A stretch of DNA of 64,000 nt from a virus (IMGVR_UViG_3300021387_000463:331001-395000), one strand, 5' to 3'; numbered from the stretch's first letter, positions 25,466 through 61,829 are shown. The notes: a model not told the origin generated them from the letters alone. A program made the numbers and translations.

Positions 25466-26338
25466 ATGGCAACTAACGTTAAGTATCTTAAGGAAAATAA
25501 TTTATATGAGGCACATAAGCACTTTATGCGTCTTAGTGAAGCATATATACCAACATCGTTCCCAGAGGAAGAAATCGAGGAAGCTGGTGCTGACCAAAAC
25601 CAAGACCCTAATGCAATGGGAGGTCAAGACCCTATGATGGGAGGAGACCCTAACGCAATGGGTGGTGGTGCTAGCCCTATGGGTGGTGGTATGCCTCAAG
25701 ACCCAAATGCTATGGGTGGTGCTGACCCTAACGCTATGGGAGGAGACCCAAATGCAATGGGAGGCGCAGACCCTATGGCTAGTGCTGACCCAAATTCAGG
25801 GGCTGACCCAATGGCTGACCCTATGGGTGGTGATATGGGTGGTGAAGACCCTTTGGCTGACGCTAGTGGTGATATGAGTGAGGAAGATGGCGAGACAATT
25901 GACATCGATGGTTTGACCCAAGCACAAGATAAACTTAATGTTAAGCAGAACCATATCGGAAGAGATTTGTCAAAAGTCGATACAAGAATCACATCGTTGA
26001 TTGATACTATCAATAACCTTTTGTCAAAGGTTGATAGCAACAACAGTGAGATTGAAGCATTAAAGGCTGAGTTTGAGAAGAGAAATCCAACCCAGACTGA
26101 GAAGCTTAACCTACGCTCACTCGATTCTTATCCATTTAATATCAAGCCAAATGAGTATTGGGATGAAAAGGCAAAGCAAGGTGGATATGAGGCATACTCA
26201 GACAATGCAGAGCCTACAACCAAGGAATATACAATCACCAATGATGACGTAGATAATCCATCTGATGACATCGCAAAGACATTCTTCAAGATTGATGATG
26301 ATGATGTCCAGACACTTGACAAACTATTCAATTTCTAA
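25466..26338 (+). CDS. putative prohead core/scaffold-like protein with GGDPNAM repeats
   Basis: LxE sites near N-terminus, G/D/P/M repeat linker, coiled coil, LRSLDSYPFN; function inferred. Confidence 0.6.
   Translation: MATNVKYLKENNLYEAHKHFMRLSEAYIPTSFPEEEIEEAGADQNQDPNAMGGQDPMMGGDPNAMGGGASPMGGGMPQDPNAMGGADPNAMGGDPNAMGGADPMASADPNSGADPMADPMGGDMGGEDPLADASGDMSEEDGETIDIDGLTQAQDKLNVKQNHIGRDLSKVDTRITSLIDTINNLLSKVDSNNSEIEALKAEFEKRNPTQTEKLNLRSLDSYPFNIKPNEYWDEKAKQGGYEAYSDNAEPTTKEYTITNDDVDNPSDDIAKTFFKIDDDDVQTLDKLFNF
25590..25870 (+). repeat. in-frame tandem repeats encoding (G)G(A/Q)DPNAM
   Basis: About ten degenerate DPxxM/DPxA units. Confidence 0.8.
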
Positions 26339-26577
26339 TGAAAACAGTTAATTTAAGCGAGGAAGCATACAAGAAACTCATCAATGAGATTGGCTATGGC
26401 AATGATGATTTGGGGAATTTACGCAATGAATTAAAATATAGTATTGGTGATGCCTCACAAGTCATCAGAGACCATTTTATAATGTGCGAAAGACTTAATC
26501 AAGAACCTAATCCATATGTGGCTGATATAGCCAAACATATACAAGAAATAGAACAATTACTTAATAATTTACAGTAG
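26338..26577 (+). CDS. small protein with MKTVNLSEE..KLINE leader
   Basis: 79 aa, TAATG overlap with previous gene. Confidence 0.7.
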   Translation: MKTVNLSEEAYKKLINEIGYGNDDLGNLRNELKYSIGDASQVIRDHFIMCERLNQEPNPYVADIAKHIQEIEQLLNNLQ

Positions 26578-26578
26578 T

Positions 26579-26866
26579 ATGAAAAAGATTATAAGACTTA
26601 CAGAATCAGAACTTAGAAATATAGTTGAGGAGTCAACAAAGAGGATTATCAAAGAGGCTGAGAGTGGTGGTTGGGTAGTTGATTCATCCGAAGCTCAAGA
26701 GGCATATGATTTAGCTGTTCAAGAAATGGGTGAGGAAACCATTAACAGTGCAATTGTAAGAAGCCTTGGCGATGAAGTATTGGCACAATGTCTTGCTTAT
26801 ATCTTTAGGCAATATGATTTCAGACAATGGCAAAGTCGTTTTGACAGTCAAGATGAAATGATTTAA
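26579..26866 (+). CDS. small protein with MKKIIRLTESELRNIVEES leader
   Basis: 95-aa ORF. Confidence 0.75.
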   Translation: MKKIIRLTESELRNIVEESTKRIIKEAESGGWVVDSSEAQEAYDLAVQEMGEETINSAIVRSLGDEVLAQCLAYIFRQYDFRQWQSRFDSQDEMI

Positions 26867-26876
26867 AAGAAATAGG

Positions 26877-26918
26877 ATTCTCCAGTTATGAAAAAAAGTG
26901 AATATAACTGGAGAATTT
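26877..26918 (+). terminator. hairpin / probable terminator
   Basis: ATTCTCCAGTTAT...ATAACTGGAGAAT 13-bp stem. Confidence 0.6.
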
Positions 26919-26929
26919 ATATCAATTTT

Positions 26930-26961
26930 CTTGTTTTTTTCGATTTTTTTTTATATCTTTG
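26930..26961 (+). promoter_or_regulatory. Bacteroidetes-type promoter
   Basis: CTTG-N20-TATCTTTG upstream of SSB. Confidence 0.75.
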
Positions 26962-27025
26962 CAATATAATTTAAGCATGTGTTAGACATGCATTTTAAAT
27001 AATTTTTTTAATAACAATTTTAATT

Positions 27026-28024
27026 ATGGGTAACAAAAATTTTAGCGTTAACATTGATGATGACGCAGTTAGGAATCAGTATGAACAAGAACAGAAGCAA
27101 CCTGTTAAGAAAACTCAGTTTGACACTAAGAATTATTTACAAGCTAGGCTTGGGTCAAACGAAGACACAAAGACACTTACAATCAGATTATTGCCATTCT
27201 CCCCAGAAGGTGGTAGTCCATTCAAGAAAGTTTTTATGCATACCGTTAAGGTAAACAAGGAGGTTTCACCTAGTGGGTGGAAGACTTTCGTGTGCCCAAC
27301 ACACAACAAGAAAGATGGCTCTGTAATGGGTGATAAATGTCCATTCTGTGAGACATCTGCAAAGGCACGTGAGCTTAAGTCTAAGTCACTTGATGAACCT
27401 ACAAAGAAAAAGTACGGTGATGTGGAATTCCTTAATCGTGTTAAGGAAATGTGGATTGTGCGTTGTATAGAGCGTGACCACGAGGAAGATGGAGTTAAGT
27501 TTTGGCTCTTCAACAGCTCAAAGAAGAAGGACGGAGTTTATGACAAGATTATGAACTTGGCAAAGATTCGTTCTGAGGCAGCAGCAAAGAAGGGAAATAC
27601 CTACAGCATATTCGACCTTAACAATGGACTTGATTTGGTTGTAACCCTCTCAAGAACCTCAGACAATAAGACAGCAGTTCAGATTATTGATGCTGGTCTT
27701 CCTTCGCCACTTTCAGAGAATTTCGACCTTGGCGAGAAGTGGATTCACGACAGCAAGAAGTGGGATGAGGTATACACTGTTAAGCCTTATGAGTACATGG
27801 CAATTATCGCAATGGGTGGTGTTCCAGTATTTAGTAAGGAAGAGAATAAGTATGTTGACAAGGAAGAGCTTGATAAACTTAAGGAAGAGGCTGAAAAGCA
27901 GAGAATTGACGAAGCTCTCACAGAACCAACAAAAGATTTCTCTGATATTGCAGAATCTAGCGGTGTGAATATAATTGATGGTAATGACGTTAAAGATGAC
28001 GATGACGAAGACTTACCATTCTAA
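27026..28024 (+). CDS. single-stranded DNA-binding protein (T4 gp32-like)
   Basis: IRLLP..PF..H..FVCP..KCPFCE Zn motif, acidic C-terminal DDDDEDLPF. Confidence 0.85.
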   Translation: MGNKNFSVNIDDDAVRNQYEQEQKQPVKKTQFDTKNYLQARLGSNEDTKTLTIRLLPFSPEGGSPFKKVFMHTVKVNKEVSPSGWKTFVCPTHNKKDGSVMGDKCPFCETSAKARELKSKSLDEPTKKKYGDVEFLNRVKEMWIVRCIERDHEEDGVKFWLFNSSKKKDGVYDKIMNLAKIRSEAAAKKGNTYSIFDLNNGLDLVVTLSRTSDNKTAVQIIDAGLPSPLSENFDLGEKWIHDSKKWDEVYTVKPYEYMAIIAMGGVPVFSKEENKYVDKEELDKLKEEAEKQRIDEALTEPTKDFSDIAESSGVNIIDGNDVKDDDDEDLPF

Positions 28025-28045
28025 GTAGGCAATGTTACGATTAAT

Positions 28046-28672
28046 ATGAACAAACTATTTTATTACTATGGCTCAATGGCTTCAGCTAAAACACTGAGGC
28101 TATTGAGCACAGCTTACAACTTTGAGGAAAAAGGTGTACAAATAATGGTACTTAAGCCATCGTTGGATACAAGAGACGGTGAAGGAGTTATCCGTTCACG
28201 TGCTGGTCTTGAGCGTAAGTGTATCATGATTGACAACGAGATTAACTTATACAAGGCTATAAAGGCATATAAGAACGTTCTAAATGCACAATTTGAAACT
28301 CTTAAGTGGGTTATAATCGATGAGTGCCAATTCCTTACCGAAGAACAAGTAGACCAACTATCAGATGTTGTAGATTTTTTAGGAATTAATGTAATGTGCT
28401 TTGGACTTAGAACAGATTTCCAATCAAAGCTATTTCCAGGTTCTAAACGACTTTTTGAACTTGCAGATGACATAGAAGAGATTAAGTCAACTTGTGAGTG
28501 CGGAGACAGAAAAACCTCAATCAATGCTAGATTTGATGAAAATGGTGAAATTATCACTGAAGGTAGTCAAGTCATGATTGGTGGTAATGACAAGTACAGA
28601 GCCATTTGCAGAAAATGTTGGAAAGACAAAGTAAGAGATAAATTGTTGAAGGAAAATGAAACTAAAGCGTGA
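28046..28672 (+). CDS. tdk: thymidine kinase
   Basis: YGSMASAKT, IIDECQFL, FGLRTDF, CECG..IGGNDKYRAICRKC. Confidence 0.95.
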   Translation: MNKLFYYYGSMASAKTLRLLSTAYNFEEKGVQIMVLKPSLDTRDGEGVIRSRAGLERKCIMIDNEINLYKAIKAYKNVLNAQFETLKWVIIDECQFLTEEQVDQLSDVVDFLGINVMCFGLRTDFQSKLFPGSKRLFELADDIEEIKSTCECGDRKTSINARFDENGEIITEGSQVMIGGNDKYRAICRKCWKDKVRDKLLKENETKA

Positions 28673-28865
28673 TTTTAAGGTTGGGACACCCATTCAATTC
28701 AAGTGGTACGATAATTGGAAAGATGAGCTTGAAAATCCAACTAATTTTAAGGTTTTAGAAGGTACTGTTGATTCAAACACAGCAATGGATGAAGTGATAG
28801 TATATAACGAGCATGATAGAATGTTTTATGCTGTTAGAAATGAATATATTTTAAAAGAGTTTTAA
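28656..28865 (+). CDS. hypothetical protein
   Basis: 69-aa ORF in operon. Confidence 0.6.
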   Translation: MKLKRDFKVGTPIQFKWYDNWKDELENPTNFKVLEGTVDSNTAMDEVIVYNEHDRMFYAVRNEYILKEF

Positions 28866-28868
28866 GTT

Positions 28869-29096
28869 ATGAAATTATTAAGAAAGTATGATATAGGAGA
28901 TAATATTTCATATACATTTTATGGTGCTAAAAAAAAAGGCAAAATCAGAGAAATCCGACACCCATTTCAATACGAAATTGAAGAAGTTTTTGATGATATA
29001 ACAGTTGATGATTTATTATATGTAATTGAAACAAATGAAAGGGATGAAGATGGTATAATAGTTGATAATATGATATTAGAATATAATATATTATGA
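28869..29096 (+). CDS. hypothetical protein
   Basis: 75-aa ORF in operon, KYDIGD SH3-like start. Confidence 0.6.
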   Translation: MKLLRKYDIGDNISYTFYGAKKKGKIREIRHPFQYEIEEVFDDITVDDLLYVIETNERDEDGIIVDNMILEYNIL

Positions 29097-29121
29097 ATAA
29101 TTTCGAAAATATTATTAAGTT

Positions 29122-30312
29122 ATGAAGCAGCCAATTAAGAAAAAGGAGTTTAAGAAGCCAAGTATTGCTAGTTTTAAGGAAAAATATGGTTTAACGATGA
29201 AATCAAACAAGGATTTGGTAAAGTCTGTTGCAGATAAGCCTACAGATTTTATTCCACTTCCAGAAGCATTTGCAGATGCAATTAAACTTCCAGGTATACC
29301 AAAGGGTTATCTTACAATTGTGACTGGATGGTCAAACACTGGTAAATCAACCATTAAAAATTGTCTTATCGCAAGTTGTATTAATAATGGAATACTTCCA
29401 GTTATATATGAGACAGAGAACAACTTTGACTTTCAATATGCGATTGATTGTGGCATGAAAGCAACACCTATTTATGATGATGTAGAGGTTGAGGATGTTG
29501 ATGAAGAAACTGGAGAGATTACAACCCATACAGAGAAAAGAATTATTAATTATGATGGAGAATTCTTATATTTTGATAATAAGATTCTAGCTGAAATGTA
29601 TGGTAATCGTGATTATTCAACTGGAAAAGAATCTAAAACTAAACGTAAGGAAGCAGTTCTTGAGGACATTGCATACTCTATAAATGATTTGTTAGATGCA
29701 CAAGATAGAGGTGAAATCCAACAGCCAATGTGCTTTATTTGGGACTCTATTGGTTCTATTCAGTCGTTTAAGTCACTTGAGAGCAAGAGTGGTAACAATA
29801 TGTTTGATGCTGGTGCAATTTCGCAATCATTCAGCAACATTATCAACAATAGAATTCCATCTTCAAAGAAGGTTAGTGAAGAGTTTACAAACACATTCTT
29901 CTGTGTTAACAAGATTTGGAATGATTCAATGAATTCAATGGGTGGTGTACCTTCAATCGAGCTTAAGGGTGGTAAGACATTCTTCTATGGTGCAAGATTG
30001 ATTATCCATCTTGGAGGTATCGGTAAGGCTGCTACAAAGAAACTTGATGCAACTGCAAAGGGTAGCAAGTATCAGTATGGTATCACAACCAAGATAAGAA
30101 CAACTAAAAACCAGTTACCAACACCTTGGAATGTAACATACGAAGGTGAAATGTCTTGTGTACATAATGGTCTATTGAATCCAAAGGCACTAGAGGAATA
30201 CAAGAAAACCTACATGAAGGATATTCTTGCAAAGATTGAAGAGACAAGTGGTAAGAAACTTGACTTAACAGAAAATGATGTACAATTCACTGAAGAAGAT
30301 TCTGAAGAGTAA
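29122..30312 (+). CDS. recA: RecA/UvsX-like recombinase
   Basis: PGIPKG, Walker A GWSNTGKS, YETE, FIWDSIGS, KGGKTFFY, TKNQL. Confidence 0.85.
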   Translation: MKQPIKKKEFKKPSIASFKEKYGLTMKSNKDLVKSVADKPTDFIPLPEAFADAIKLPGIPKGYLTIVTGWSNTGKSTIKNCLIASCINNGILPVIYETENNFDFQYAIDCGMKATPIYDDVEVEDVDEETGEITTHTEKRIINYDGEFLYFDNKILAEMYGNRDYSTGKESKTKRKEAVLEDIAYSINDLLDAQDRGEIQQPMCFIWDSIGSIQSFKSLESKSGNNMFDAGAISQSFSNIINNRIPSSKKVSEEFTNTFFCVNKIWNDSMNSMGGVPSIELKGGKTFFYGARLIIHLGGIGKAATKKLDATAKGSKYQYGITTKIRTTKNQLPTPWNVTYEGEMSCVHNGLLNPKALEEYKKTYMKDILAKIEETSGKKLDLTENDVQFTEEDSEE

Positions 30313-30473
30313 TGAGTTTTGAATATACAGTTAAATATAGACCACATCGCATTGTAGATTATATTATTACAAATGTTAGGCATAATGAAGCTGACGATTC
30401 AGTTGTAATAGAATATAGCAATGGGGAATCAATAAAACTTAGTTTAGCAGATTTAATTGGACATGAAGCTTGA
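30312..30473 (+). CDS. small hypothetical protein (53 aa)
   Basis: Hand-found; TAATG overlap with recA stop. Confidence 0.5.
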   Translation: MSFEYTVKYRPHRIVDYIITNVRHNEADDSVVIEYSNGESIKLSLADLIGHEA

Positions 30474-30600
30474 ACATGTTGTAAAGAAAGTCTATGAACC
30501 TATACATAGAGGTGGATGGGAATTTACATTTACGCCACCACAATGGATTATAGATTGGTGTGAAGATAAGGCATTTATTGAAACAGTAGAATACATATGA
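30463..30600 (+). CDS. small hypothetical protein (45 aa)
   Basis: Hand-found MKLEHVVKKVYEPIHRGGWEF..., chained overlap. Confidence 0.45.
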   Translation: MKLEHVVKKVYEPIHRGGWEFTFTPPQWIIDWCEDKAFIETVEYI

Positions 30601-30674
30601 GTTTAGAAACTGTAGATAGACTATTTGAAGATGATTGGTTGTGGGAATGGGTTGTGGTACATGACCGATATTAA
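30597..30674 (+). CDS. small hypothetical peptide (25 aa)
   Basis: MSLETVDRLFEDDWLWEWVVVHDRY; ATGA overlap, ends just before terminator. Confidence 0.35.
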   Translation: MSLETVDRLFEDDWLWEWVVVHDRY

Positions 30675-30681
30675 ATAAAGA

Positions 30682-30714
30682 ATAGGGGAGAAAGAGATTT
30701 CTCCCTTATTTTTT
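30682..30714 (+). terminator. intrinsic terminator
   Basis: ATAGGGGAGAAA..TTTCTCCCTTATTTTT. Confidence 0.7.
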
Positions 30715-30743
30715 GGAATTTTAACATTTTTTTTATATCTTTG
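30712..30743 (+). promoter_or_regulatory. Bacteroidetes-type promoter
   Basis: TTTG-N20-TATCTTTG, near-identical to 24121. Confidence 0.8.
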
Positions 30744-30758
30744 CAAAAAGGTGTTAAA

Positions 30759-31067
30759 ATGAAAGATATGATACGTGAATATAAAGGAGAAATGTTTAGA
30801 AAATTTGCGTTGAAGCTTAAAAAAGAAGGGCTTTGGCAAAAGTTTATTATTCTTGAATATTATTTTAGATTTTACAATAATCTAGATAATAACTTAATAA
30901 CAATATATAAATATCTCAAAAACGAAAATAGTGATAACGTAATATTATTAGATTGGGTTAAAGGAAAAAAGAAAGGTAGATTTGGTTCATATTTGGATAG
31001 TATGCTGTTTTCTGAATATGACAGATACATATTGCTGAGTGATTTTTTTAAACATTATAAAGTATAA
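30759..31067 (+). CDS. hypothetical protein
   Basis: ORF after promoter; start moved to ATG 30759. Confidence 0.6.
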   Translation: MKDMIREYKGEMFRKFALKLKKEGLWQKFIILEYYFRFYNNLDNNLITIYKYLKNENSDNVILLDWVKGKKKGRFGSYLDSMLFSEYDRYILLSDFFKHYKV

Positions 31068-31070
31068 AAT

Positions 31071-31634
31071 ATGACAGACGAGCAAAGAGAAAAAAACCTA
31101 GAGCTTTATGTTAAGAAGCTAGGAAAACTTGGTATTGATACAAGTACCTTGATTGAAAAGTATGGAGAACTTTTAAAGAATGGTTCTTTCACACAAACAA
31201 ATGAGTTTGGAAACGCTTACAACGGCTCACTGCTTGAGATTATTTTGAAGGTGCTTACACCTTATGCAGTGAAAGTAAATGAGTTGCTTCCAGAGGATAG
31301 AAGGGTTGATAAGCCTACTCTCGTAAAGGTATGTCTTCTTCACCAAATCGCAAAGGCAGTTAGATTGATTCCTAACGATAACCAATGGGAGGTTGAGAAG
31401 CGTGGCTTTGTTTACAAATACGATAATAACTTACCTTCAATCAGAACTGGTCTACACTCCGTTTCAATGTGTTTTGAGTGTGGTATACCTTTGACAACTG
31501 AAGATATTGAGGCAATGACAGTTAATGATAGAGACCTATCGGATGACCAAGCACGTTGGCACTCAAGTATCATGGCAACAATTGTAAGACAAGCAAGCGA
31601 ACTAACATATCTTCAAATCAACGATAAGAAATGA
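31071..31634 (+). CDS. HD-domain-like protein (degenerate)
   Basis: AYNGSLL..LVKVCLLHQIAK..IPLTTEDIEAM..IVRQA. Confidence 0.6.
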   Translation: MTDEQREKNLELYVKKLGKLGIDTSTLIEKYGELLKNGSFTQTNEFGNAYNGSLLEIILKVLTPYAVKVNELLPEDRRVDKPTLVKVCLLHQIAKAVRLIPNDNQWEVEKRGFVYKYDNNLPSIRTGLHSVSMCFECGIPLTTEDIEAMTVNDRDLSDDQARWHSSIMATIVRQASELTYLQINDKK

Positions 31635-32227
31635 AATTTTGGAGAAAAAAAGAAAAGGAAGTACACGTAAAGATTAAAAGGCTACGTGATGATGCAGTAA
31701 TGCCTACATATGCCCATGAGGGTGATGTTGGTATGGATTTAACAGCAGTCAGTGTTGAATATGACCAAGAGCATGATATGTACATTTATCACACTGGTCT
31801 TGCTGTAGAAACTGATAAGGGATATGGAATACTTTTATTTCCAAGAAGTTCAAATAGGAAAACAGACGCATATCTTTGCAACCATGTTGGTATTGTGGAT
31901 TCATTCATATATCGAGGTGAAATGATGCTATGCTTCAAGAATAGAGACTCACTTAGGACACTTGCTCTTGAGGCTAGATTCCTTGAATTCTTAAATAATC
32001 TCAAGTTTAAGGATATTGATAGGCTTACTCTTGATGAAGCTAAGAAGAATTCAAGTGTTACTTGGATGGATACAATGAGGAATCCAATGGCATTTGCCCC
32101 ATATAAGGTTGGTGAAAGGATTGCACAAATGGTAGTAGTACCATACCCTAAAGTTAAGCTAACTGAGGTAAATCAGCTTTCAGTGACAGAAAGGGGTGAA
32201 GGAGGATTTGGTTCAACTGGTAAATAA
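31631..32227 (+). CDS. dut: trimeric dUTPase
   Basis: GDVGMDL, FPRSS, VGIVDSFIYRGE, ERIAQ, RGEGGFGSTG. Confidence 0.95.
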   Translation: MKFWRKKEKEVHVKIKRLRDDAVMPTYAHEGDVGMDLTAVSVEYDQEHDMYIYHTGLAVETDKGYGILLFPRSSNRKTDAYLCNHVGIVDSFIYRGEMMLCFKNRDSLRTLALEARFLEFLNNLKFKDIDRLTLDEAKKNSSVTWMDTMRNPMAFAPYKVGERIAQMVVVPYPKVKLTEVNQLSVTERGEGGFGSTGK

Positions 32228-32236
32228 TTCAATGTT

Positions 32237-32842
32237 ATGACAGACGTACAAGTTTTTAAATGGTTTTGTAAGGAACAAGGAATAATGGCTAATATAAGGG
32301 GAATGTACTATGTATCTACCCCTAAAAGATACATGCGAGAGAGAAACGGAGGTTTTTATAAATTATCTTTTGAAGAGTGGATTCATGAGTTGGTTTCTAG
32401 TCGTGGATTCTACAGTCTATTAACTAAGATAGGAGAGGCATATACTTGCAATATACTATACAGTCAATACGACCACATGATTCCTAGCATTGAGGGGCTA
32501 TATACAGACGGATTTAAAAAAGCAATGCAGCGTTGGACATATTTTGTCAGTAAAAATATTATCGTTGATGACATATCTCTGAAGGTTGGTGATATTGTTT
32601 ATTATAAGAATCCTTTCAAATGGGATGACCCAGACTGCGAAATGGTTGTTGTTGACCATATCAATATTAGGGACGGTTATGTAAGTGGGCATCTTAATGG
32701 TAAGAATCCTGATGTTTGGGAAAATAAAAGGGATTACATGAATTTATCTCAATTAAGGAAATTAGATAATCCACACGAGCAGTTAGAAATAAATTATTCC
32801 ATTAAGCGTAATAGGAGGGTTTACAATGGGGTTAATAGATGA
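32237..32842 (+). CDS. hypothetical protein
   Basis: 201-aa ORF in operon. Confidence 0.7.
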   Translation: MTDVQVFKWFCKEQGIMANIRGMYYVSTPKRYMRERNGGFYKLSFEEWIHELVSSRGFYSLLTKIGEAYTCNILYSQYDHMIPSIEGLYTDGFKKAMQRWTYFVSKNIIVDDISLKVGDIVYYKNPFKWDDPDCEMVVVDHINIRDGYVSGHLNGKNPDVWENKRDYMNLSQLRKLDNPHEQLEINYSIKRNRRVYNGVNR

Positions 32843-33950
32843 TAGAATATGTTATACATATGAAGACCTAACAATTAAACCATGTGTTGTTAGCAATATA
32901 AACCATCGTGTAGAATGCAATCCTTTCGATAATGGGGGTATGCTACCATTATTCACAGCACCAATGGATACTGTGGTGAATGAGGATAATTTCAATCTAT
33001 TCGAATTAAATAAGATTACTTCAATATTACCTAGAATAGAACAATATCCAATTGACGTTAGAGTAACGTATGCAACTGGAGGTAAGTGGGCAGCTTTTTC
33101 ACTTGATGAGTTTATACATTATTTCTGTACACCAGTAATCCCAATGTTCAAGGGATTCCCAATGAAAGCATTAATTGATGTTGCCAACGGACACATGCAG
33201 AGACTATTCGATGCAGCCAAGAAAGCAAAGTCAATATGGGGTAGAAATCTAATACTTATGGGTGGTAATATTGCCAATGAGGAAACATACGAACTCTATG
33301 CTGATGCTGGATTTGATTACGTTAGAGTTGGAATCGGTGGTGGTAAGGGATGTCTTAGCACTTCCAATACTGGAGTTCATAAACCAATGGCATCATTGGT
33401 GAATGATACTTATCTTCTCAAGAAGAAACTAGAGGAAGTAAAGAAATATGAAAAACTACCATATATTATTGCAGATGGTGGTATAAGAGGCTACCGTGAC
33501 ATTATAAAGGCGATTGCGCTTGGTGCTGATTATGTTATGATTGGTAGTGTATTCGCTAAAATGTTTGAATCAGCGTCACAAAAAGTATATGGTACAATGC
33601 TTGGTATTGATATTAATTCTTTTAGAGATTTACATTATAATGGAAATAATGCTGGATGGGAAGGAACATATAGAGGAGAAAAATACAATATTGGGCCAGT
33701 TTATGCTACTTTTTATGGTATGGCTTCTAGGGAAGGACAAATTGCTATGAATGGAGCGAAGACAAAAACTAGTGAAGGTGTAAAGAAAACGCTTGAGGTA
33801 GAGTATACAATGGAAGGTTGGGTAAATAACTTTACTGATTATCTACGTTCAGCAATGTCATATCTTGGTGTTAACACGTTGGAAGAACTTAGAGAAAAGG
33901 CAATTTTGGTGGTAAATTCACAAAATGCAGTGAATGCAGTAAATAAATGA
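32826..33950 (+). CDS. IMP dehydrogenase / GMP reductase family protein
   Basis: APMDTV, IDVANGH, GNIA, RVGIGGGKGCLST, IIADGG, GADYVMIG, FYGMAS, SEG; no CBS domains. Confidence 0.9.
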   Translation: MGLIDDRICYTYEDLTIKPCVVSNINHRVECNPFDNGGMLPLFTAPMDTVVNEDNFNLFELNKITSILPRIEQYPIDVRVTYATGGKWAAFSLDEFIHYFCTPVIPMFKGFPMKALIDVANGHMQRLFDAAKKAKSIWGRNLILMGGNIANEETYELYADAGFDYVRVGIGGGKGCLSTSNTGVHKPMASLVNDTYLLKKKLEEVKKYEKLPYIIADGGIRGYRDIIKAIALGADYVMIGSVFAKMFESASQKVYGTMLGIDINSFRDLHYNGNNAGWEGTYRGEKYNIGPVYATFYGMASREGQIAMNGAKTKTSEGVKKTLEVEYTMEGWVNNFTDYLRSAMSYLGVNTLEELREKAILVVNSQNAVNAVNK

Positions 33951-34700: not shown

Positions 34701-34706
34701 TTTGGC

Positions 34707-37982: not shown

Positions 37983-38627
37983 ATGAAAGAATTTCTAACA
38001 AGTGGCATTGTCGGAAACATTGAACTTGATAAGTCAATATGTGTGCATACATATGAACAAGCAAAGAAGAGTCCTAAAATGAAGGAAAAACTAGAGAAAT
38101 ATGTTGAAAGATGGAAGCAGCTAGGATTCACTGAGGGATTCCCAGAGGAACGTAAGGAAGAGTTATCATATGCTTATGAGCAACTTGCAGTTTTTTTAAT
38201 TGCTTGTGCAACAGAACAAACGCATGCATTGTTCACTGACCAAGAGAGATATTTCGACACAGTTGGTTTTCCAATGACTAGAAGAGTTCTTGGTAATCTT
38301 GAACCAAATGAGTTTGATTTCCAAATGTACATAAAGTATTGTAAGGAGTTTAACGTCAATGACGTGATTAATTATGTCGAAGAGTTGAATCCAATAATAG
38401 AACCTTGGGGACCAGGAAGAGAGGTTGTAAGAAAGTATTTCAGCATGGATAGTGAAGCTGAAGCAGTCGCTATATGCTGCGATATGATAGAAGAAAAATT
38501 CAAAAATCCAGATAAAGATAGTAATACTATTAGAAAGGAACATTTTGATAAAGTTAAGAAACTAATTGAAACTAAGAAAGAAGAGTTAAAGAATGAAGGA
38601 ACTAGTAGTGATAATACCAATGCATGA
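37983..38627 (+). CDS. protein resembling the N-terminal segment of a gp23-like major capsid protein
   Basis: MKEFLTSGIVGNIEL..ERWKQLGFTEG..YEQLA..FDTVGFPMTRRV; only 214 aa. Confidence 0.55.
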   Translation: MKEFLTSGIVGNIELDKSICVHTYEQAKKSPKMKEKLEKYVERWKQLGFTEGFPEERKEELSYAYEQLAVFLIACATEQTHALFTDQERYFDTVGFPMTRRVLGNLEPNEFDFQMYIKYCKEFNVNDVINYVEELNPIIEPWGPGREVVRKYFSMDSEAEAVAICCDMIEEKFKNPDKDSNTIRKEHFDKVKKLIETKKEELKNEGTSSDNTNA

Positions 38628-52258: not shown

Positions 52259-52259
52259 G

Positions 52260-54296: not shown

Positions 54297-54305
54297 ATAT
54301 TTATA
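54297..54305 (+). promoter_or_regulatory. putative late promoter ATATTTATA
   Basis: About 20 nt upstream of ATG 54326. Confidence 0.55.
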
Positions 54306-54325
54306 AGAAATATTGATATTTAACG

Positions 54326-55075
54326 ATGAAATTAATTAAAATAAACGAATCTCAGCAAAAAAGACTGTTCGAAGCGTATCAAGAGGGATTTTCGTTTGAC
54401 CATTTATCCATATTAGGTAACGATGCTTTTTCTGATGAGGAATCTAGCAGCAAACTACAGTTCGAATATTGTAGGAAGTGGCTAGGAGAACCAGTTGCGC
54501 AAGGTTCTTCTAGATGTATCTTTATGTTGAGTGACAATCTTGTTTTGAAGATTGCAAATGGCAAGTATGAAGCTGGCAAGGCTCAGAATCGTCTTGAGTG
54601 TCAACTATATGAGGAAACAAAATCACCATTGTTGGTTAGAATATTCGGAAACGATGATAATTATACGTATATAATCTGTGAAAATGTAATTCCAGCACAG
54701 CCAATAGACTTTGAAAAGATTATCGACATACCATTCTATAATAGGTACTATAACCAGAGGAATTCTGAATACAGTCAATATTTCGAGAATCCAAGGGCTA
54801 ATTATGAGAAAGTACCATATGATGTGTATGACATAGTATGCTATCTTGAGGCCAACTATTCCGTTGGAGAAGGATATTACAGCAAGGATATAGAAATGTA
54901 TCTTAGAAAGAATCCTTGGTTGAAGAAGCTTGAGGAATTTATAATGAACACACAGATTGGCGATTTAACTAAACCTGAGAATTACGGAGTTGTAAATAGA
55001 GACGGAAATCCAATGATTGTGGTTCTTGACGCAGGAATGAATTTAGAAAATTGGGAGGGATATTATCGTGGCTAA
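54326..55075 (+). CDS. protein kinase-like protein with MKLIKINESQQKRLFE leader
   Basis: AQGSSRCIF (Gly loop), LVLKIA, QNRLE, GDLTKPENYG (catalytic loop), VLDAG. Confidence 0.7.
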   Translation: MKLIKINESQQKRLFEAYQEGFSFDHLSILGNDAFSDEESSSKLQFEYCRKWLGEPVAQGSSRCIFMLSDNLVLKIANGKYEAGKAQNRLECQLYEETKSPLLVRIFGNDDNYTYIICENVIPAQPIDFEKIIDIPFYNRYYNQRNSEYSQYFENPRANYEKVPYDVYDIVCYLEANYSVGEGYYSKDIEMYLRKNPWLKKLEEFIMNTQIGDLTKPENYGVVNRDGNPMIVVLDAGMNLENWEGYYRG

Positions 55076-55610
55076 TTTAAAGTTTAATACAAATAACATA
55101 AGACGTGTTCCGATTAACAGAAACAGTCTATTCTACGATGCAGAAACATTTGCATTGGAGAGGGAGATAGGTAAGGACTATATCGAGCAAGATATTGGTC
55201 AAACTGTCGTATTATATCAAGTTGATGCATCACAAACACAGACTGATGCAGTATATGGTGAGTCATCTTCAGATGAGGTTGCATTCAAGACACCAGTTGA
55301 AATACCATGTACATATAAGATTGAGGAACCAGAGTTGAAGTCATATGACAAGTCAAAGCAACTTGGTACTTATATGAAGACTGGTAAGCTCACCATTGGT
55401 GTATACCAAGAGACTCTTGTTGAACTTAACGTTGATATTAAGAAGGGTGATTATATTGGTGTGCAAATATCTCCAGAACACATGGAGTTCTTCGTAGTCA
55501 ATAATGACGGTAAGAACAACTATGATAATGCTCATTCACTATGGGGTACTGTTCCATTGTATAGAACAATACAATGTTCTCCAGTTGATACTAGTGAGTT
55601 TAAGGCTTGA
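55068..55610 (+). CDS. head closure / neck protein (gp14-like)
   Basis: YIEQDIGQTVVLYQVD..DAVYGES..FKTPVEIPC..DIKKGDYI; GTG start. Confidence 0.6.
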   Translation: MANLKFNTNNIRRVPINRNSLFYDAETFALEREIGKDYIEQDIGQTVVLYQVDASQTQTDAVYGESSSDEVAFKTPVEIPCTYKIEEPELKSYDKSKQLGTYMKTGKLTIGVYQETLVELNVDIKKGDYIGVQISPEHMEFFVVNNDGKNNYDNAHSLWGTVPLYRTIQCSPVDTSEFKA

Positions 55611-55617
55611 AAGAAAG

Positions 55618-55653
55618 AATGGAGACAGAACAAATCTGTCTCCATTTCTTTTT
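55618..55653. terminator. bidirectional terminator
   Basis: AATGGAGACAGA..TCTGTCTCCATT. Confidence 0.75.
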
Positions 55654-55654
55654 A

Positions 55655-56869
55655 TTATTTCTTAGCTAATTGTTTATATAGTTCAACCCTTTGTTTGCAA
55701 ATTGTATCAAGTGAATATCTATCCTTTACGAAGTTATACAAGTTGTCTTGAAGCTTCTTAAGCATATCTCTATCATTAGCAAGCTTGTTGATGTACTTAG
55801 CCCAATCCTTATGATTCTTTCTTGAATCAACTAGAAGTGCAGTACCTTCCTCATTAATCTTACCACCCTTTTCAATCATTGGAATCAAGTTAATGGTATA
55901 TGCACCAAAGTTCTGTGCGATAAACGCTGTATGCGTGAATCCACACTCGATTTCCTTCAACTCAGACTTAACACTATTGAATTCGTTTTCCTTCAATGGT
56001 GCTATAAGTACATCTACATTTTGATAGTGTGTAGCATAGTTATTTATGTCCCTAGTCCACATTCTACGATATGGCTCATTTGTAAATGGGTCATCTGTGT
56101 TTGCAATGTACTTCATAAGGAATTCTTTATGCTCAGGAGAAACATTTTTATAATCATCAGTGAAAATCTTCTCATAATCACACCATACACTCTCATGTGG
56201 TAGAATTGGGCGAGTTGTCTTCTCACCAGTTTCTTGATTATAGATTGTTCTGTTTCCTCTTGTATCGAAACCACAAAGTACAAACTGCACCTTATCCTTA
56301 TCAATCTGCTTTGCAATACCATCCAATAGTTGCAAATCCTTCAAGTGTGAAGAACCACAGATGATGCCAACTCTAAGTCTTCCGTCACCTTCAATCTTTG
56401 GAACTGCATACTGTTTTTCCTCTGGATTGATTGCATTTGGGAACACAGCCACATTCTTGTTATATTTCTTCAAAACATTTGCGAAGATAGGCGTGGTGGT
56501 TGTAACATAATCAGCTTTCTTAAGGTGATTGATGATTGGCTCATGCCACTTTTCCTTCTTTGCAGTCAATGACATTGGATGGTCATCACCAAGTTTAAAG
56601 TGGTCATCCACGTCAATGATTACTGGAATACCCAAGAACTTAATCATGTCGATAATCTTGCATTGCTTATCAAGCTGCTTGTGTATATGAATCAAGTCAT
56701 ATTGTTTCAAAAAAGCCTCAAGGTCTCCGTTAGGCATGCTATAAACAATATCTACATCAAATTCATCACCATAATGCTCTTGAATGTATAGATGTGGGTC
56801 TACTGAACGGAACTTACCGACACCAGTTCTATCACTAGGTATCACTAACATTTTAATTTTCTTATCCAT
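55655..56869 (-). CDS. glycosyltransferase (GT-B)
   Basis: GVGKFRSVDP, IIDVDD, ADYVTTTT..PNAI, GSSHLKDL, IAPLKENEFNSVKSELK. Confidence 0.85.
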   Translation of the reverse strand: MDKKIKMLVIPSDRTGVGKFRSVDPHLYIQEHYGDEFDVDIVYSMPNGDLEAFLKQYDLIHIHKQLDKQCKIIDMIKFLGIPVIIDVDDHFKLGDDHPMSLTAKKEKWHEPIINHLKKADYVTTTTPIFANVLKKYNKNVAVFPNAINPEEKQYAVPKIEGDGRLRVGIICGSSHLKDLQLLDGIAKQIDKDKVQFVLCGFDTRGNRTIYNQETGEKTTRPILPHESVWCDYEKIFTDDYKNVSPEHKEFLMKYIANTDDPFTNEPYRRMWTRDINNYATHYQNVDVLIAPLKENEFNSVKSELKEIECGFTHTAFIAQNFGAYTINLIPMIEKGGKINEEGTALLVDSRKNHKDWAKYINKLANDRDMLKKLQDNLYNFVKDRYSLDTICKQRVELYKQLAKK

Positions 56870-56893
56870 ATTTTAATATATTAAAACAATTTA

Positions 56894-57358
56894 TTATCTT
56901 GTAAGTACATAACCCATAGAAACCTTTCCATCCATATTTCTGAACAATGTTGCCAACATGAATGGGAATTCACCAGCTGAGAACCAACGTCTGATTTCTT
57001 GTGCTGATTTTGGCATCATTTCCTCTGGACCGTTATAATACTTCTTGAAATATTCGAACACATAATTAGCAACATAATCACAATCACTTATCCTAACAAC
57101 CTCTTGTTTAACCTCTTTTGTAATTGACATGAAAATGTCCTCATAATATCTTCTTTCGAAAATACCATACATAAACAAGGCATTTGGCATTGCATACATA
57201 TGCTCATTGTGAATTGCCAACAACTTCCTTGAAAAGTCATTCAACATTATTGTCTTTACTTTCTCAAGGTCTGGGTTATCAAAGTCAATATCGACATTAC
57301 AAGTTATTCCATAACCCTTTACACGCTTAACACGTCCATCATCAAAATATTCTATCAT
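56894..57358 (-). CDS. hypothetical protein
   Basis: ORF, start moved to ATG 57358. Confidence 0.65.
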   Translation of the reverse strand: MIEYFDDGRVKRVKGYGITCNVDIDFDNPDLEKVKTIMLNDFSRKLLAIHNEHMYAMPNALFMYGIFERRYYEDIFMSITKEVKQEVVRISDCDYVANYVFEYFKKYYNGPEEMMPKSAQEIRRWFSAGEFPFMLATLFRNMDGKVSMGYVLTR

Positions 57359-57418
57359 ATTTTTTTCTATAAAAGATAAGGAAAATTGAGGGAAAATAAA
57401 CAAATAAAAACAAAAAAA

Positions 57419-57445
57419 AAAGAGTGTTATCCGTTAACACTCTTT
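57419..57445 (-). terminator. intrinsic terminator
   Basis: AAAGAGTGTTA..TAACACTCTTT with T run on minus strand. Confidence 0.65.
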
Positions 57446-58131
57446 CTCTTATCGTTTACGTTACCAACTTTCTTCATAACGCATTCATATAAATCTCCGT
57501 TCTTTGCCAAGAATCTGAATGACTTACCAATTGATATTGTATTCACCTCATTGGTTTCTTGTCTTCCCTCAGATACAATCTTCTTATTTAGGGAAACAGC
57601 ATACTTTCTTACGATTTCCTCAACAATTGTTCTAATCATTGGATAATCTACTTGAGGTGCTGCTGCATATTGCATCTGTGGTTGAGGCGCATACTGCTGT
57701 TGTACACCCTCATTAACAAGTTGTCTAACGTTCTGTGGAGGTGTATATGTTGGTTGCTGTGGTGCAGCATCCATTATTCCTTCGGTAAGGAATGAAAGGT
57801 CACGATTATCACCACCACCAAATGCAGCATATAGCTCTGACTCATCAATTGGGTTGGCCATAAATGCTTCTCTGATTGCGGCTGGTACGTTTGCAGCATT
57901 TTCTCCCATCTGTCCACCGAATGAAGGTGGTGCTTGGGTCTTTCTATTCCTAGCTGTTGTCATCAAGTCACTAGTTAGGGTTTCTCCATTAAGTGACTCA
58001 TTAATACCGTCCTTATGTCCTGCTGCGATTTTATCAAGAGTGCCATTTGCTTCCAATTTCATGAGCTTTGCAGCCCTTGACATGGACTCATTTAACCTAG
58101 CCCTCTTTTGTTGTTCAGTCATATTTGCCAT
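57427..58131 (-). CDS. hypothetical late protein rich in (L/I/V)xE sites
   Basis: RLNES, GINES, FLTEG, LVNEG, IVSEG; PAAIREAFMANPI. Confidence 0.75.
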   Translation of the reverse strand: MANMTEQQKRARLNESMSRAAKLMKLEANGTLDKIAAGHKDGINESLNGETLTSDLMTTARNRKTQAPPSFGGQMGENAANVPAAIREAFMANPIDESELYAAFGGGDNRDLSFLTEGIMDAAPQQPTYTPPQNVRQLVNEGVQQQYAPQPQMQYAAAPQVDYPMIRTIVEEIVRKYAVSLNKKIVSEGRQETNEVNTISIGKSFRFLAKNGDLYECVMKKVGNVNDKRKSVNG

Positions 58132-58850
58132 TATCTTCTGTTGTTATTTAAATAATCATTTTCATCGAAATCTACTTCGTCAGAATCATAACCCTTATCT
58201 GTTACTGGTCCCTTCTGTGGCTCTGTCAAAGCCTTTTCAGCATCGTTAAGGTCGAATAGACGCCAGAAATCTTCACCCTTCTTTGGAGTATTCTCTATAT
58301 TCTGCCTAATCATGTCGTACTTCCTACTATTAGGTTGAGAGGTATAGACATTTTTCTTCCATTGCTGTGTGATTCTTGGCTGTTGTACTGGGCCTTTTGT
58401 TGCATTTTTTTGTTGACCAACTTTTACGTCATTTTGGAATTGCAATAGCTGTCTTTCCGCTGGGCTGATAAAGTCATCGAATTTGGCATTATCATAGAAT
58501 GTGCCCATTGTCTTATCTCCAGTGAGATTGTATTCACCAAATGAACTTGGTGGTGCTTCAAAGAATTTCTTATTTTTCATTGGTGTCCAAGATGTGATTC
58601 TATCAAGTCTGAAGAACTTCCACTTCGGAGCACCCCTACGAGTTCCACCACCTTCTTGAAACGCTCTAACAACAGGATAACCTTTCTTTGTTGTACCTAT
58701 TGCAAAAGGTTTAATGACACGACTACCCTTTGGATTTCCAGCACCATCACCTTGTCCATCATCATATCTGATACGGACTTGGTATTTGTTTCGGATTGCA
58801 TCAAGAACAGCATCAAACGCTACTTCTTCATTTAAAAGGCAGTTTGCCAT
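58131..58850 (-). CDS. WYL-domain-like protein
   Basis: DAI..VRIRYD..RVIKPFAIG..VRAFQ..WKFFRLDRI. Confidence 0.7.
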   Translation of the reverse strand: MANCLLNEEVAFDAVLDAIRNKYQVRIRYDDGQGDGAGNPKGSRVIKPFAIGTTKKGYPVVRAFQEGGGTRRGAPKWKFFRLDRITSWTPMKNKKFFEAPPSSFGEYNLTGDKTMGTFYDNAKFDDFISPAERQLLQFQNDVKVGQQKNATKGPVQQPRITQQWKKNVYTSQPNSRKYDMIRQNIENTPKKGEDFWRLFDLNDAEKALTEPQKGPVTDKGYDSDEVDFDENDYLNNNRR

Positions 58851-58859
58851 GTCTTAATA

Positions 58860-59201
58860 TTAATCTTTTTCGTTATATGGGTTATAAGTAACCTTCATAT
58901 TCATTTCATCCAAACGACTCTGAGGTGTGACATCCATATTTTGCTTTGCATATAGCTCATTGAGTTGGTTCTGATATGTATTATCGACAATCAATGATTT
59001 CAATGCTTCCAACTTTCTCTGCATCTTTCTGTCTGCGAAGAATGCGTTGGTCTCAGCAATTGCTTGTCTTGTCTCTTCCTCGTTTAGTTCCTTCTTTACA
59101 TTAGCCTTTTTGATAGAATCTACCCTCTTGTCAACAAGTTCCATTCCGATTAGGATGTTCTTTGCTAGTTTATGTAGTCTATCGTTATCATAACTTCTCA
59201 T
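58860..59201 (-). CDS. hypothetical protein
   Basis: 113-aa ORF in operon. Confidence 0.7.
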   Translation of the reverse strand: MRSYDNDRLHKLAKNILIGMELVDKRVDSIKKANVKKELNEEETRQAIAETNAFFADRKMQRKLEALKSLIVDNTYQNQLNELYAKQNMDVTPQSRLDEMNMKVTYNPYNEKD

Positions 59202-59227
59202 AGATTAGTTTATTTAAATTGAATGTA

Positions 59228-59650
59228 TTAAGTGGTAGTTTTCTGTCCAATCTGCTGGCCGAAGAAATACTGACCGTCATTTACATTCTGAGTTGTGTCT
59301 ACAAGATTTGCACCGTAAGGCACTTCCTTGTTATACATTGAGATAGCCAATGCTCTCTCACGTCCACTGATTCCATTTCTACCTTTTATATCGTAGTAAC
59401 CACCACCATTTTCAGTATCGAAATTACTGTAGTTAATCTGGGTTGTTGGTTTTGTACAATCTGGTAAGAAGTGAGTGTGACCACCGTGTCCTGTACCCTT
59501 ACCTTGAGCATCACCATCGCTCATTGCATCTGGGTGAGTTGGACCGTATTGATTCTCGATGTTATAGTCACTACGAGTAATCTCTTGGTGTCTCTCTTCC
59601 ATGCCTCTCTTTTCAAGACAAGTCTGTCCGTTCTGAACTGTATTTGCCAT
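59228..59650 (-). CDS. hypothetical late protein
   Basis: 140 aa; HPDAMSDGDAQGKGTG; late motif at 59685. Confidence 0.75.
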   Translation of the reverse strand: MANTVQNGQTCLEKRGMEERHQEITRSDYNIENQYGPTHPDAMSDGDAQGKGTGHGGHTHFLPDCTKPTTQINYSNFDTENGGGYYDIKGRNGISGRERALAISMYNKEVPYGANLVDTTQNVNDGQYFFGQQIGQKTTT

Positions 59651-59708
59651 ATTCTTTATAAAATTTAAGTAATTTATTTTCTATTATAAATAGTTATTCC
59701 TAATATTT

Positions 59709-60188
59709 TTAGCCCCATCTAGTTGCTTTTGGCATCATATCTGTCATTATGTCTGATACTGATTGCAATCGTTCTGTAATTTCCTTTGGGGCATTTCTTT
59801 CATTAATCACCTTTTGTTTCTCTACCTCTTTCTTGAATTTCTTTTCCTCTTTAGCCTTTCTCTTAGCCTCTGCCTTTGCTTCTTGTTTCTCTTGCTTTAT
59901 CCTAGCAGTCTCGATTTGGTCTTGAACACTCTGGTCAGTGCTTCCAACTGGGAATTCAGTCTGTACCATATACTCAGCATCTACCAATGCCTTTGTGTAT
60001 TGCAAGTCAACCTTCCATTCATTTCTATATAGATGTTCTTTCCTTGCTTCAATACCAAATTTTTCAAGACAAGTCTGTTTTCCACTTGAGTTAACATTTG
60101 AAGATGGCTGCTGTGGCTTTGTACCACCCATTATATTCTCAATAGTGTTACCAATCTTCTTTAAAGTATTATCTATAGTATTAGCCAT
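59709..60188 (-). CDS. hypothetical protein sharing QTCLEKxGxExR motif with 59228..59650
   Basis: 159-aa ORF. Confidence 0.7.
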   Translation of the reverse strand: MANTIDNTLKKIGNTIENIMGGTKPQQPSSNVNSSGKQTCLEKFGIEARKEHLYRNEWKVDLQYTKALVDAEYMVQTEFPVGSTDQSVQDQIETARIKQEKQEAKAEAKRKAKEEKKFKKEVEKQKVINERNAPKEITERLQSVSDIMTDMMPKATRWG

Positions 60189-61578
60189 TCTTCAATTTGA
60201 TTAATTGCTTTTCAGTTATATACACCTTTTTGCCGTTTCTCTTAATTTCTTCAGCAATCTGATTTAATGCCTTACTTCCACCAACAACGAATATTGAAGC
60301 CATATCACCTCTCTGGTGGTAAACATCCAACGCTTTATTAACTATTACCAATACTTTTTCAGGTGGTAAATCCTCGTCATATTCTGAAAGTATTCTCTCC
60401 AATGGTTCTATACCAAAATCAGAGAATGCATCACTACCGTCAGGCATCATCATCCAATCATAAAATCCAATTAAGTCAAGGAAGTTCATAGAATCAACTA
60501 CCCAATATAATTTATTAATGCTGTAATCTATTTCAATTTTTCCGTGTAATCTAGATTTTTTATTGAATTCTTCTATGTATCGCTCAACATCACCATATAC
60601 TTGTTCGAACTTAGCTTTTTGTCTTGCAAGGTCTTGCTGTGCTACAGTCCTATTAACATCATCTTGAGACATCCAAGGGAAATATGTTTGTCCATATTTG
60701 TCAACAGCTTCGTTTAATGCGTTAAACTCATCATTATATAGTTTCATTACGTCATTTGGTGATAATTCTACCTTAATTTCATCACTGCTAACTGATTCTA
60801 CCTCTCTAGAGTTATTGAAATATGACATTACAAAATCTTCAAATTCTTCCTCTGGAAACCATTGACTATGACCTGCAATACTAGTATTAGCCTTTAAAAT
60901 TGCAGTATTTTTCATAATAATACCAATCCATTGATAAATGTATCTTGCTGGGAATTTAACCAATTTTCCATATTTAGTGAACTCGCTTAACGCTTTTGCA
61001 TACATATCTGGATTTATCAGTACCCCCCAATTTTGTTTTCCTTCTGGATTATCAAGGAAACTATTAAATACATAAATGGGACTATATTCTTCTAAATAAT
61101 CCCAAAATGCACTAGATTCAACATCTTCTTTTATTATCCTATTCTCAGTCTTTATTTTGGATGTAGGCACACTTTGCTTGGCTATATTGACGTTGCTAGG
61201 TTTAACACTTGCGGTAGGCTTTGGAGGCTCTATTGGAGATACCTCTGCTTGGCTTCTAGCCCTCTCTACAGTTTTCTTGTAGAAATTGTAAGCCTTTTGT
61301 CCACCTTGCGTTATGTCGTTAGGATTCATTCTCTGCATTCTCTTCTTTGCATCCTCAACGCTAACATAGCTTGTGTTCTGTTCCTTACCATTCACGCTGT
61401 CATCACCCTTCTTGTTGTAATTCTTGGTTGATGCAAGGCTCTTAAGGTTCTTGAGGCTATTCTTAGGCATAACCTTCTCTAGCGCATTGTACCATGCACT
61501 ATAATACTGCCTATCCTTCAATGGAACAGGTGCTTTCCTTCTAGTTACCTTCTGTGAATCCTCTAAAAATAATGCCAT
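60181..61578 (-). CDS. hypothetical multi-segment protein with internal IIKE/LNE sites
   Basis: 465 aa; C-terminal KKVYITEKQLIKLK. Confidence 0.75.
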   Translation of the reverse strand: MALFLEDSQKVTRRKAPVPLKDRQYYSAWYNALEKVMPKNSLKNLKSLASTKNYNKKGDDSVNGKEQNTSYVSVEDAKKRMQRMNPNDITQGGQKAYNFYKKTVERARSQAEVSPIEPPKPTASVKPSNVNIAKQSVPTSKIKTENRIIKEDVESSAFWDYLEEYSPIYVFNSFLDNPEGKQNWGVLINPDMYAKALSEFTKYGKLVKFPARYIYQWIGIIMKNTAILKANTSIAGHSQWFPEEEFEDFVMSYFNNSREVESVSSDEIKVELSPNDVMKLYNDEFNALNEAVDKYGQTYFPWMSQDDVNRTVAQQDLARQKAKFEQVYGDVERYIEEFNKKSRLHGKIEIDYSINKLYWVVDSMNFLDLIGFYDWMMMPDGSDAFSDFGIEPLERILSEYDEDLPPEKVLVIVNKALDVYHQRGDMASIFVVGGSKALNQIAEEIKRNGKKVYITEKQLIKLKNG

Positions 61579-61580
61579 TG

Positions 61581-61829
61581 TTAAATTGTATTTGATGATT
61601 TCCTACCGCCAACAGCACCCCATTGCTGTGGTGACTGTGCGTTTGCGAACTTTTCAGTATCCATTGGATTAGCCTTTTTAGGGCTTCTATCCTTATCAGT
61701 TATTGTTGGCTGAAGCTCTACCTTATCCAAACCATCATACTCTGGAATTGTACTTGTTCCAAAATCTTGGTCTGTAACGCTCTCAAACAGCCTACTATAC
61801 TGAGATTCATTCAAATTAATTATTTTCAT
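61581..61829 (-). CDS. small protein with MKIINLNESQYSRLFES leader
   Basis: 82-aa ORF. Confidence 0.7.
   Translation of the reverse strand: MKIINLNESQYSRLFESVTDQDFGTSTIPEYDGLDKVELQPTITDKDRSPKKANPMDTEKFANAQSPQQWGAVGGRKSSNTI

Follow-up and report, generated by a model that had tools for sequence, protein, structure and literature searches.

The window analysed here, a stretch of 64,000 nucleotides, comprises bases 331001-395000 of the virus record IMGVR_UViG_3300021387_000463 and carries copies of a leader peptide that stands on otherwise unrelated proteins of this virus. The long form of the leader has 26 residues, with the consensus MKKIIRLTESDLHNIVKESVxRILKE. Comparison of its copies shows that the leader is real and is selected as a peptide. 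Database searches show that it is restricted to phages, co-occurs with an S77 prohead protease and adjoins the protease gene. Judged from its sequence and by analogy, the long leader may be a longer, two-site functional relative of the capsid-targeting sequence (CTS) of phage T4, providing for docking on the prohead core and then being removed by the S77 protease. This reading is given an even chance of being correct. The record is a single contig of 412,753 bp, complete according to CheckV, with a GC content of ~35%.

The long leader was defined by a regular-expression scan followed by profile searches of all six-frame open reading frames (ORFs) of the genome. To avoid circularity, the profile was rebuilt from foreign sequences only, and the best match of a reversed-sequence control had an E value of 1.6. 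With this foreign-only profile, nine N-terminal copies on unrelated proteins, including the copy at 26579 in the window, and one internal copy were recovered at E 1e-11 to 1e-16. The N-terminal position applies to nine of the ten strong copies. Weaker matches were found at genome 6722 (one) and inside the gene at genome 248539-250488 (two). In 107 of 122 foreign ORFs the leader begins at a Met, and 98 of these 107 lack an upstream in-frame Met. The bodies behind the leaders are unrelated, as the preliminary description of this DNA had held, with a best pairwise BLASTP E value of 0.1 among 14 bodies. The features of the window that belong to the long leader are as follows (window positions):

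26579-26656, plus strand: long leader MKKIIRLTESELRNIVEESTKRIIKE, 26 residues, with LTE at residues 7-9 and IKE at residues 24-26 (E 2.7e-11, foreign-only profile)
26657-26866, plus strand: 69-residue acidic helical body that starts AESGGW, with strong conservation over 185 clusters at 90% identity
63875-64000, plus strand: start of a 159-residue protein with a DUF3008-like N-terminus, an internal long leader (E 7e-14) and a 73-residue body

The leader copy of the 63875 protein occupies residues 62-86, at window ~64058-64132, just past the window end. The DUF3008 match of this protein (E 0.004) is below the curated cut-off.

The copies of the leader are 70% identical in amino acids and 66% identical in nucleotides. 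Among identical leader residues, 56% are encoded by different codons, including switches between the AGY and TCN codons of Ser. Such heavy synonymous variation points to selection on the peptide, not on the DNA, and rules out a DNA-level repeat or recombination element. The predicted layout is a short extended segment, KKIIRL, followed by an amphipathic helix, SDLHNIVKESVNRILKE. Searches of Pfam and PHROGs gave no match for the leader or for the long-leader bodies. A signal peptide of the Sec or Tat type is ruled out, as a charged residue occurs every 2-4 positions and there is no uncharged hydrophobic core of ~7-15 residues. A leader of ribosomally synthesized and post-translationally modified peptides is unlikely given bodies of 60-370 residues, although no search for maturase genes was made.

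At 50% identity, 6655 clusters match the leader profile, and for 694 of these the E value is <1e-10; at 90% identity the matching clusters number more than 3306. In IMG/VR the leader was found on contigs of up to 412 kb. A search of 185,579 prokaryote species genomes detected only two leader loci, each in a metagenome-assembled genome (MAG). One is on a 3.2-kb contig of an Alphaproteobacteria MAG (L109) and the other on a 72-kb scaffold of a reindeer-rumen Bacteroidales MAG (L110), and both are probably phage contigs that were binned with bacterial genomes. The S77 protease is present in all five complete foreign leader-bearing records tested, each of which holds 7-19 leader matches when weak and internal ones are included. 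It is present in 17 of 27 records overall, the remaining records being 14-75% fragments. The protease gene lies within 3 kb of a leader in 19 of 80 foreign loci, against ~1-2 expected.

The same association is seen in the genome under study. Its prohead protease gene, at genome 298458-299153 (minus strand), is of the T4-type S77 family (PF03420, 85 bits; phrog_207). The product aligns with the structure of T4 gp21 (5jbl) at E 8e-16; it retains the catalytic Ser and Asp motifs and has a His at the position where the crystallised T4 protein has Ala. The leader genes at genome 297659 and 298055 flank the protease gene. The major capsid protein is gp23-type (PF07068, 214 bits; T4 capsid structures matched at E 5e-29) and contains four I/L-x-E sites within residues 1-60, one of them at the offset expected from the Glu65/Ala66 cut of T4. 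A very acidic scaffold-like gene (genome 299328-300821) lies between the protease and capsid genes, and portal and large terminase genes are also present.

The protease itself has the N-terminus MKKAELEIIKE, an opening like the end of the leader, and LIE at residues 19-21. The latter recalls the LIE near the N-terminus of T4 gp21, which has been discussed as a possible autocleavage site (PMC9026906).

The site rule of T4 gp21 is L/I-x-E; in T4 Alt the enzyme is documented to cut at LTE and ITE, and several sites within one propeptide are known (PMC5694885). The two conserved tripeptides of the leader, at residues 7-9 and 24-26, fit this rule and are candidate cut sites. A set of 339 distinct complete leaders has E at position 9 throughout and L at position 7 in 323 cases, and L7-T8-E9 is near-invariant. 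Position 26 is E in 337 of the same set, and position 24 is L or I in 318 and V in 10. The other hydrophobic positions of the helix (15, 16, 20 and 23) readily accept Val. All 80 complete foreign matches end in L/I/M-x-E.

The clearest comparative evidence for a putative cut junction comes from the 26579 family. The body is 80-99% identical among the 120 clusters listed of the 185, while leader sequences differ and leader lengths range between 11 and 30 residues. A hydrophobic-x-E tripeptide, almost always with I or L, stands directly before the AE-x-GGW of the body in all 114 listed orthologues that were scored. In the orthologue of locus L019, a 45-residue insert follows the leader and ends in INE right before AESGGW. 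The structure model of the 26579 protein is of low confidence, with a predicted local distance difference test (pLDDT) score of 68, and gave no fold match at E <3. On these grounds, together with the lack of a Pfam match, the label ‘histone H3/H4’ given by JGI to some orthologues is unsupported.

A separate class of short leaders was also found. A profile built from the first 17 residues of foreign 54326 orthologues recovers the 61829 gene at E 3.2e-5 and a gene at genome 5932 at E 5e-3, with a control value of 1.2. It also detects short-leader genes beside long-leader genes in foreign loci. On this profile evidence the short class is genuine and is not detectably related to the long leader, as neither 54326 nor 61829 is detected by the foreign-only long-leader profile. 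The treatment of both classes as one family was rejected; a profile with mixed seeds scored both, and the link was gone with foreign-only seeds. The short leader keeps I-x-E at residues 6-8 and L/I-x-E at residues 14-16 across 37 homologues. Its copies in the window, with the body of the first, are:

54326-54373, plus strand: short leader MKLIKINESQQKRLFE, 16 residues, with INE at residues 6-8 and LFE at residues 14-16 (short-class profile)
54374-55075, plus strand: protein-kinase-like body (structure model, Foldseek matches and conserved residues)
61782-61829, minus strand: short leader MKIINLNESQYSRLFE of an 82-residue protein encoded at 61581-61829 (E 3.2e-5)

It had been proposed that one of the carriers is a kinase, and this is supported at the level of a protein-kinase-like fold. 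The model of the 54326 protein has a pLDDT of 87, and its Foldseek matches are of modest score: methylthioribose kinase, APH(2''), Hanks-type and other kinases at E 6e-4 to 1e-2, with low TM-scores. The protein keeps the catalytic set Lys, Glu, Asp, Asn and Asp; in the 37 homologues K75, E91, N219 and D235 are invariant and D213 is nearly so. Atlas gave a Phage_T7_kinase hint, and the sole PHROG match is a family of unknown function. Residues 1-20 of the model, which include the leader, have low pLDDT and are not packed on the body. This predicted lack of packing was counted in favour of a removable capsid-targeting leader.

Two ORFs of 388 residues, at genome 197178-198341 (minus strand) and at L046:861-2024, have short-leader-like starts, MKRIHIKESKLNE (E 0.25) and MAKKIKIAESQLNKLFE (E 0.01), respectively, and may be further members of the short class. 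The locus of the L046 ORF also holds protease, portal and scaffold genes.

The preliminary description had presented six peptides as copies of one shared leader. All six are encoded where it had placed them, and their common membership was upheld in part. The peptide at 26579 is a long leader, those at 54326 and 61829 form the separate short class, and the remaining three, at 26338, 9994 and the C-terminus of the 60181 gene, fall outside both. A profile scan of the genome had been proposed as a check; the scans with the long-leader and short-class profiles gave this division: a clear long family, a separate short class, and these three peptides at chance. The three are encoded as follows:

26338-26577, plus strand: 79-residue ORF with the leader-like N-terminus MKTVNLSEEAYKKLINE (E 9 against the leader profile; membership unsupported)
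9350-9994, minus strand: 214-residue protein with the N-terminus MDINYKRIIREEINRLILSE, like the second half of the leader (E 63; unsupported)
60181-61578, minus strand: 465-residue protein, downstream of 61829 in the same unit, with the C-terminal peptide KKVYITEKQLIKLK

The 26338 ORF is found neither by the foreign-only long-leader profile nor by the short-class profile. Its orthologues in loci L019 and L024 have the same N-terminus, and within this family the proteins are 72-74% identical overall. It was rejected as a leader carrier, since its score is at chance level and the orthologues simply conserve the whole sequence. The peptide KKVYITEKQLIKLK of the 60181 gene has no match in any leader profile, long or short. 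The C-terminus contains ITE, which is the same tripeptide as a gp21 site in T4 Alt, a tripeptide only. Both this C-terminal copy and the 9994 peptide were rejected as leader copies, being at chance level in every profile test.

The timing of leader gene expression was read from a promoter-like motif, ATATTTATA, which occurs 58 times in the genome; in 33 cases a start on the same strand follows within 60 nt. A TATTTAT or ATTTATA motif heads the units of all 15 leader or leader-like genes, compared with 155 of 571 (27%) other genes (Fisher p 5.5e-9). Such units also contain the portal, terminase, protease, scaffold and capsid genes, but not the helicase and thymidine kinase genes. The preliminary description had assigned all of its quoted carriers to TATTTAT-headed units, and this is confirmed by the motifs listed below. 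It had also held that an equal frequency of the leader on early genes would speak against a packaging role; the frequencies found are the 15 of 15 and 27% given above, a comparison that depends on the promoter-like motif and on crude gene calls. The motifs of the window are:

25186-25192, plus strand: promoter-like motif of the ATATTTATA type, heading the unit 25213-26866 (ORFs of 81, 290, 79 and 95 residues)
54298-54304, plus strand: promoter-like motif 28 nt upstream of the 54326 gene
61857-61851, minus strand: promoter-like motif of the 61829 unit, overlapping the divergent plus-strand copy at 61856-61862
61856-61862, plus strand: promoter-like motif heading the 61888-64354 unit
10020-10014, minus strand: promoter-like motif upstream of 9994

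The overlapping divergent ATATTTATA motifs at 61851-61862 look like a compact bidirectional promoter.

In the mechanism proposed for the leader, small late proteins would be docked by it onto the scaffolding core of a T4-type prohead. The S77 prohead protease would cut after L-x-E at residue 26, probably with a second cut after LTE at residue 9, and cleavage would release the mature body into the head interior. The short leader of 16 residues, with I-N-E at 6-8 and L-F-E at 14-16, would act in the same way. That the proteins dock on the core, are cleaved, stay in the virion and enter the host along with the DNA is our inference.

The T4 proteins IPI, IPII, IPIII and Alt carry a CTS that is removed by gp21 (Mullaney and Black 1996, reviewed in PMC9026906, PMC3012670 and PMC5694885). 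These diverse internal proteins have only the CTS in common (PMC3012670, PMC9026906). The present leader is similarly an N-terminal peptide common to otherwise unrelated, fast-evolving and putatively late proteins. It ends in L/I-x-E, the form of the Alt sites LTE and ITE (PMC5694885), and it is accompanied by a gp21-type (S77) protease, a gp23-type capsid protein and an adjoining scaffold gene. Unlike the CTS of T4, it has two conserved candidate cut motifs and a long helix, it is found on 7-19 carriers per genome and in thousands of metagenome clusters, and it occurs also inside proteins and in tandem units; its function is here predicted from sequence. A broader claim, that the leader is a universal modular load-and-clip cassette throughout an uncultured clade of T4-type giant phages (~290-413 kb), marking for the capsid interior thousands of small proteins that cannot otherwise be recognised and sometimes linking them in cleavable polyprotein-like arrays, is tentative and rather doubtful. 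If this claim holds, the injected protein arsenal of these phages, likely anti-defence proteins among it, could be deduced directly from sequence.

A further comparison is with the phiKZ-type giant phages. In phiKZ, 201phi2-1 and SPN3US, the propeptides of head and ejection proteins are cut by S80 proteases at A/S/G-x-E, and the SPN3US paralogues gp53 and gp54 have identical 15-residue N-termini (PMC5694885). The likeness lies in a giant phage with many putative head-internal proteins, propeptides with more than one cut motif and, in some cases, paralogues that share N-termini. The differences are that P3 is here L or I at both motifs and not a small A/S/G residue, that the protease is S77 and not S80, and that the shared peptide stands on unrelated proteins and not on paralogues.

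The leader is also found in multiple copies. Among the top 245 database hits there are 126 proteins with two leader copies ~110 residues apart, a set in which the ranking favours multi-copy proteins. In the 80 viral loci no ORF with two full leader copies was seen; what was seen instead was a leader gene fused with the ORF before it, or with a unit whose leader is degenerate. In the foreign ORFs at L062:1200-1772 and L042:2707-3348, a minimal MNIINE stands directly before a widespread IGDT-x-x-GQ body, and this first unit runs without a stop into a second unit with its own Met and full leader. Judged by this arrangement, the two ORFs represent naturally fused leader-cargo units. Fusion would be tolerated by a cleavable module, so such ORFs fit the capsid-targeting model.

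The gene at genome 248539-250488 (L013) encodes a putatively late protein of 649 residues. The N-terminus is Dps-like (phrog_858, E 7.5e-5), leader-like copies lie internally at residues 356-379 and 518-542, and a segment at the C-terminus matches phrog_20603. The gene is divergent to a long-leader gene.

The analogy with the CTS of T4 had been drawn in the preliminary description. It is partly supported: the protease, the capsid protein, the L/I-x-E end, the promoter motif, the distribution and the synteny fit it, and the mixed list of peptides and the internal copies limit it. Several points weigh against the capsid-targeting reading. In the top 245 database hits 155 copies are internal, and only 56 of them have a preceding Met; internal copies occur in this genome too, in the 63875 and 248539 genes. 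They are not predicted by a pure N-terminal address tag. The leader has 26 (or 16) residues compared with 10 in the CTS of T4, the long leader being 2.6 times as long, and there is no testable sequence similarity between the two. The invariant Glu and Leu lie in a helix and could serve folding or partner binding instead of cleavage. The carriers are called late from the promoter-like motif, and the timing argument is weakened by crude gene calls (ATG-only, longest ORF). Searches by tblastn, with either an entire carrier or just the leader as the query, gave nothing usable in 50,697 phage records and no cultured carrier, and the motif RLTESDL was not found in the papers searched. The weakest step is retention in the head followed by injection. 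When 144 diverse carriers were compared with Pfam, 143 were without a credible domain and one had a WG repeat.

This scarcity of recognisable domains would suit carriers that are disposable parts of the core or scaffold, chopped and expelled on maturation and not injected as cargo. T4 gp67 and gp68 are small prohead core proteins of this kind, which have genes adjacent to gene 21 and are processed by the protease. The best-conserved leader carriers are neighbours of the protease and scaffold genes, the place of gp67 and gp68 in T4, as are the genes 297659 and 298055 that flank the protease gene here, an arrangement that recurs in 19 of the 80 foreign loci. A number of the bodies combine small size with strong acidity and low complexity, such as the 297659 body with a net charge of -22. 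No sequence relation to gp67 or gp68 was found, however, and PHROG searches of 297659 and 298055 were empty. Some carriers also appear folded and enzyme-like, namely the short-leader kinase-like protein and the WG-repeat protein. The 7-19 copies per genome are scattered far from the head genes and, with 6655 clusters at 50% identity, look like a fast-turning accessory set and not a structural one. Such a disposable role is quite unlikely. It is unlikely, too, that the leader is a shared docking helix for a late process outside the capsid, for example the binding of a common chaperone, of a host hub or of a complex for lysis or in the membrane, with L-x-E as a structural element. The common internal and repeated copies agree with a docking helix, as does a sequence that is that of a generic amphipathic helix with an N-cap. 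This explanation leaves unaccounted for the restriction to phages with an S77 protease, the synteny with protease and scaffold genes, the preference for L or I and not V at both P3 positions, and the strict hydrophobic-x-E junction before the conserved 26579 body.

AT-rich genomes often begin genes with MKK. This and the chance-level scores of three of the six quoted peptides (26338, 9994 and the 60181 C-terminus) could suggest that the leader itself is a product of chance, of compositional bias, or of a DNA-level repeat acting in recombination or translation initiation. Such an origin is very improbable in view of the E values of 1e-11 to 1e-16 against 1.6 in the control, the synonymous variation with its Ser codon switches and the presence of the leader in 6655 foreign clusters. 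The profile searches already refute chance, both for the long leader and for the short-class copies at 54326, 61829 and 5932.

Two other observations concern the window. A 214-residue protein encoded at 37983-38627 (plus strand) is 40% identical over its first ~111 residues (E 1e-17) to residues 1-90 of the capsid protein, the presumed propeptide region, and the rest of it is unrelated to the capsid protein. By this similarity it may represent a second route of entry to the prohead, by mimicry of the capsid protein N-terminus. Upstream of the 26338/26579 unit, at 11158-24119 (plus strand), there are three very large ORFs of 861, 1196 and 2141 residues, for which no PHROG matches were found.

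Even if the capsid-targeting reading is wrong, the peptide would still be among the most widespread undescribed protein modules in giant phages. If it is true, the proteins that a large group of uncultured giant phages package in the head, and possibly inject, would be recognisable with a simple sequence profile. The carriers would be prime candidates for first-strike counter-defence factors, like IPI in T4. The leader would also provide a new natural tag for the loading of foreign proteins into large capsids. The capsid-targeting principle of T4 would then extend, in a longer and two-site form, to distant phages of the rumen and other environments.

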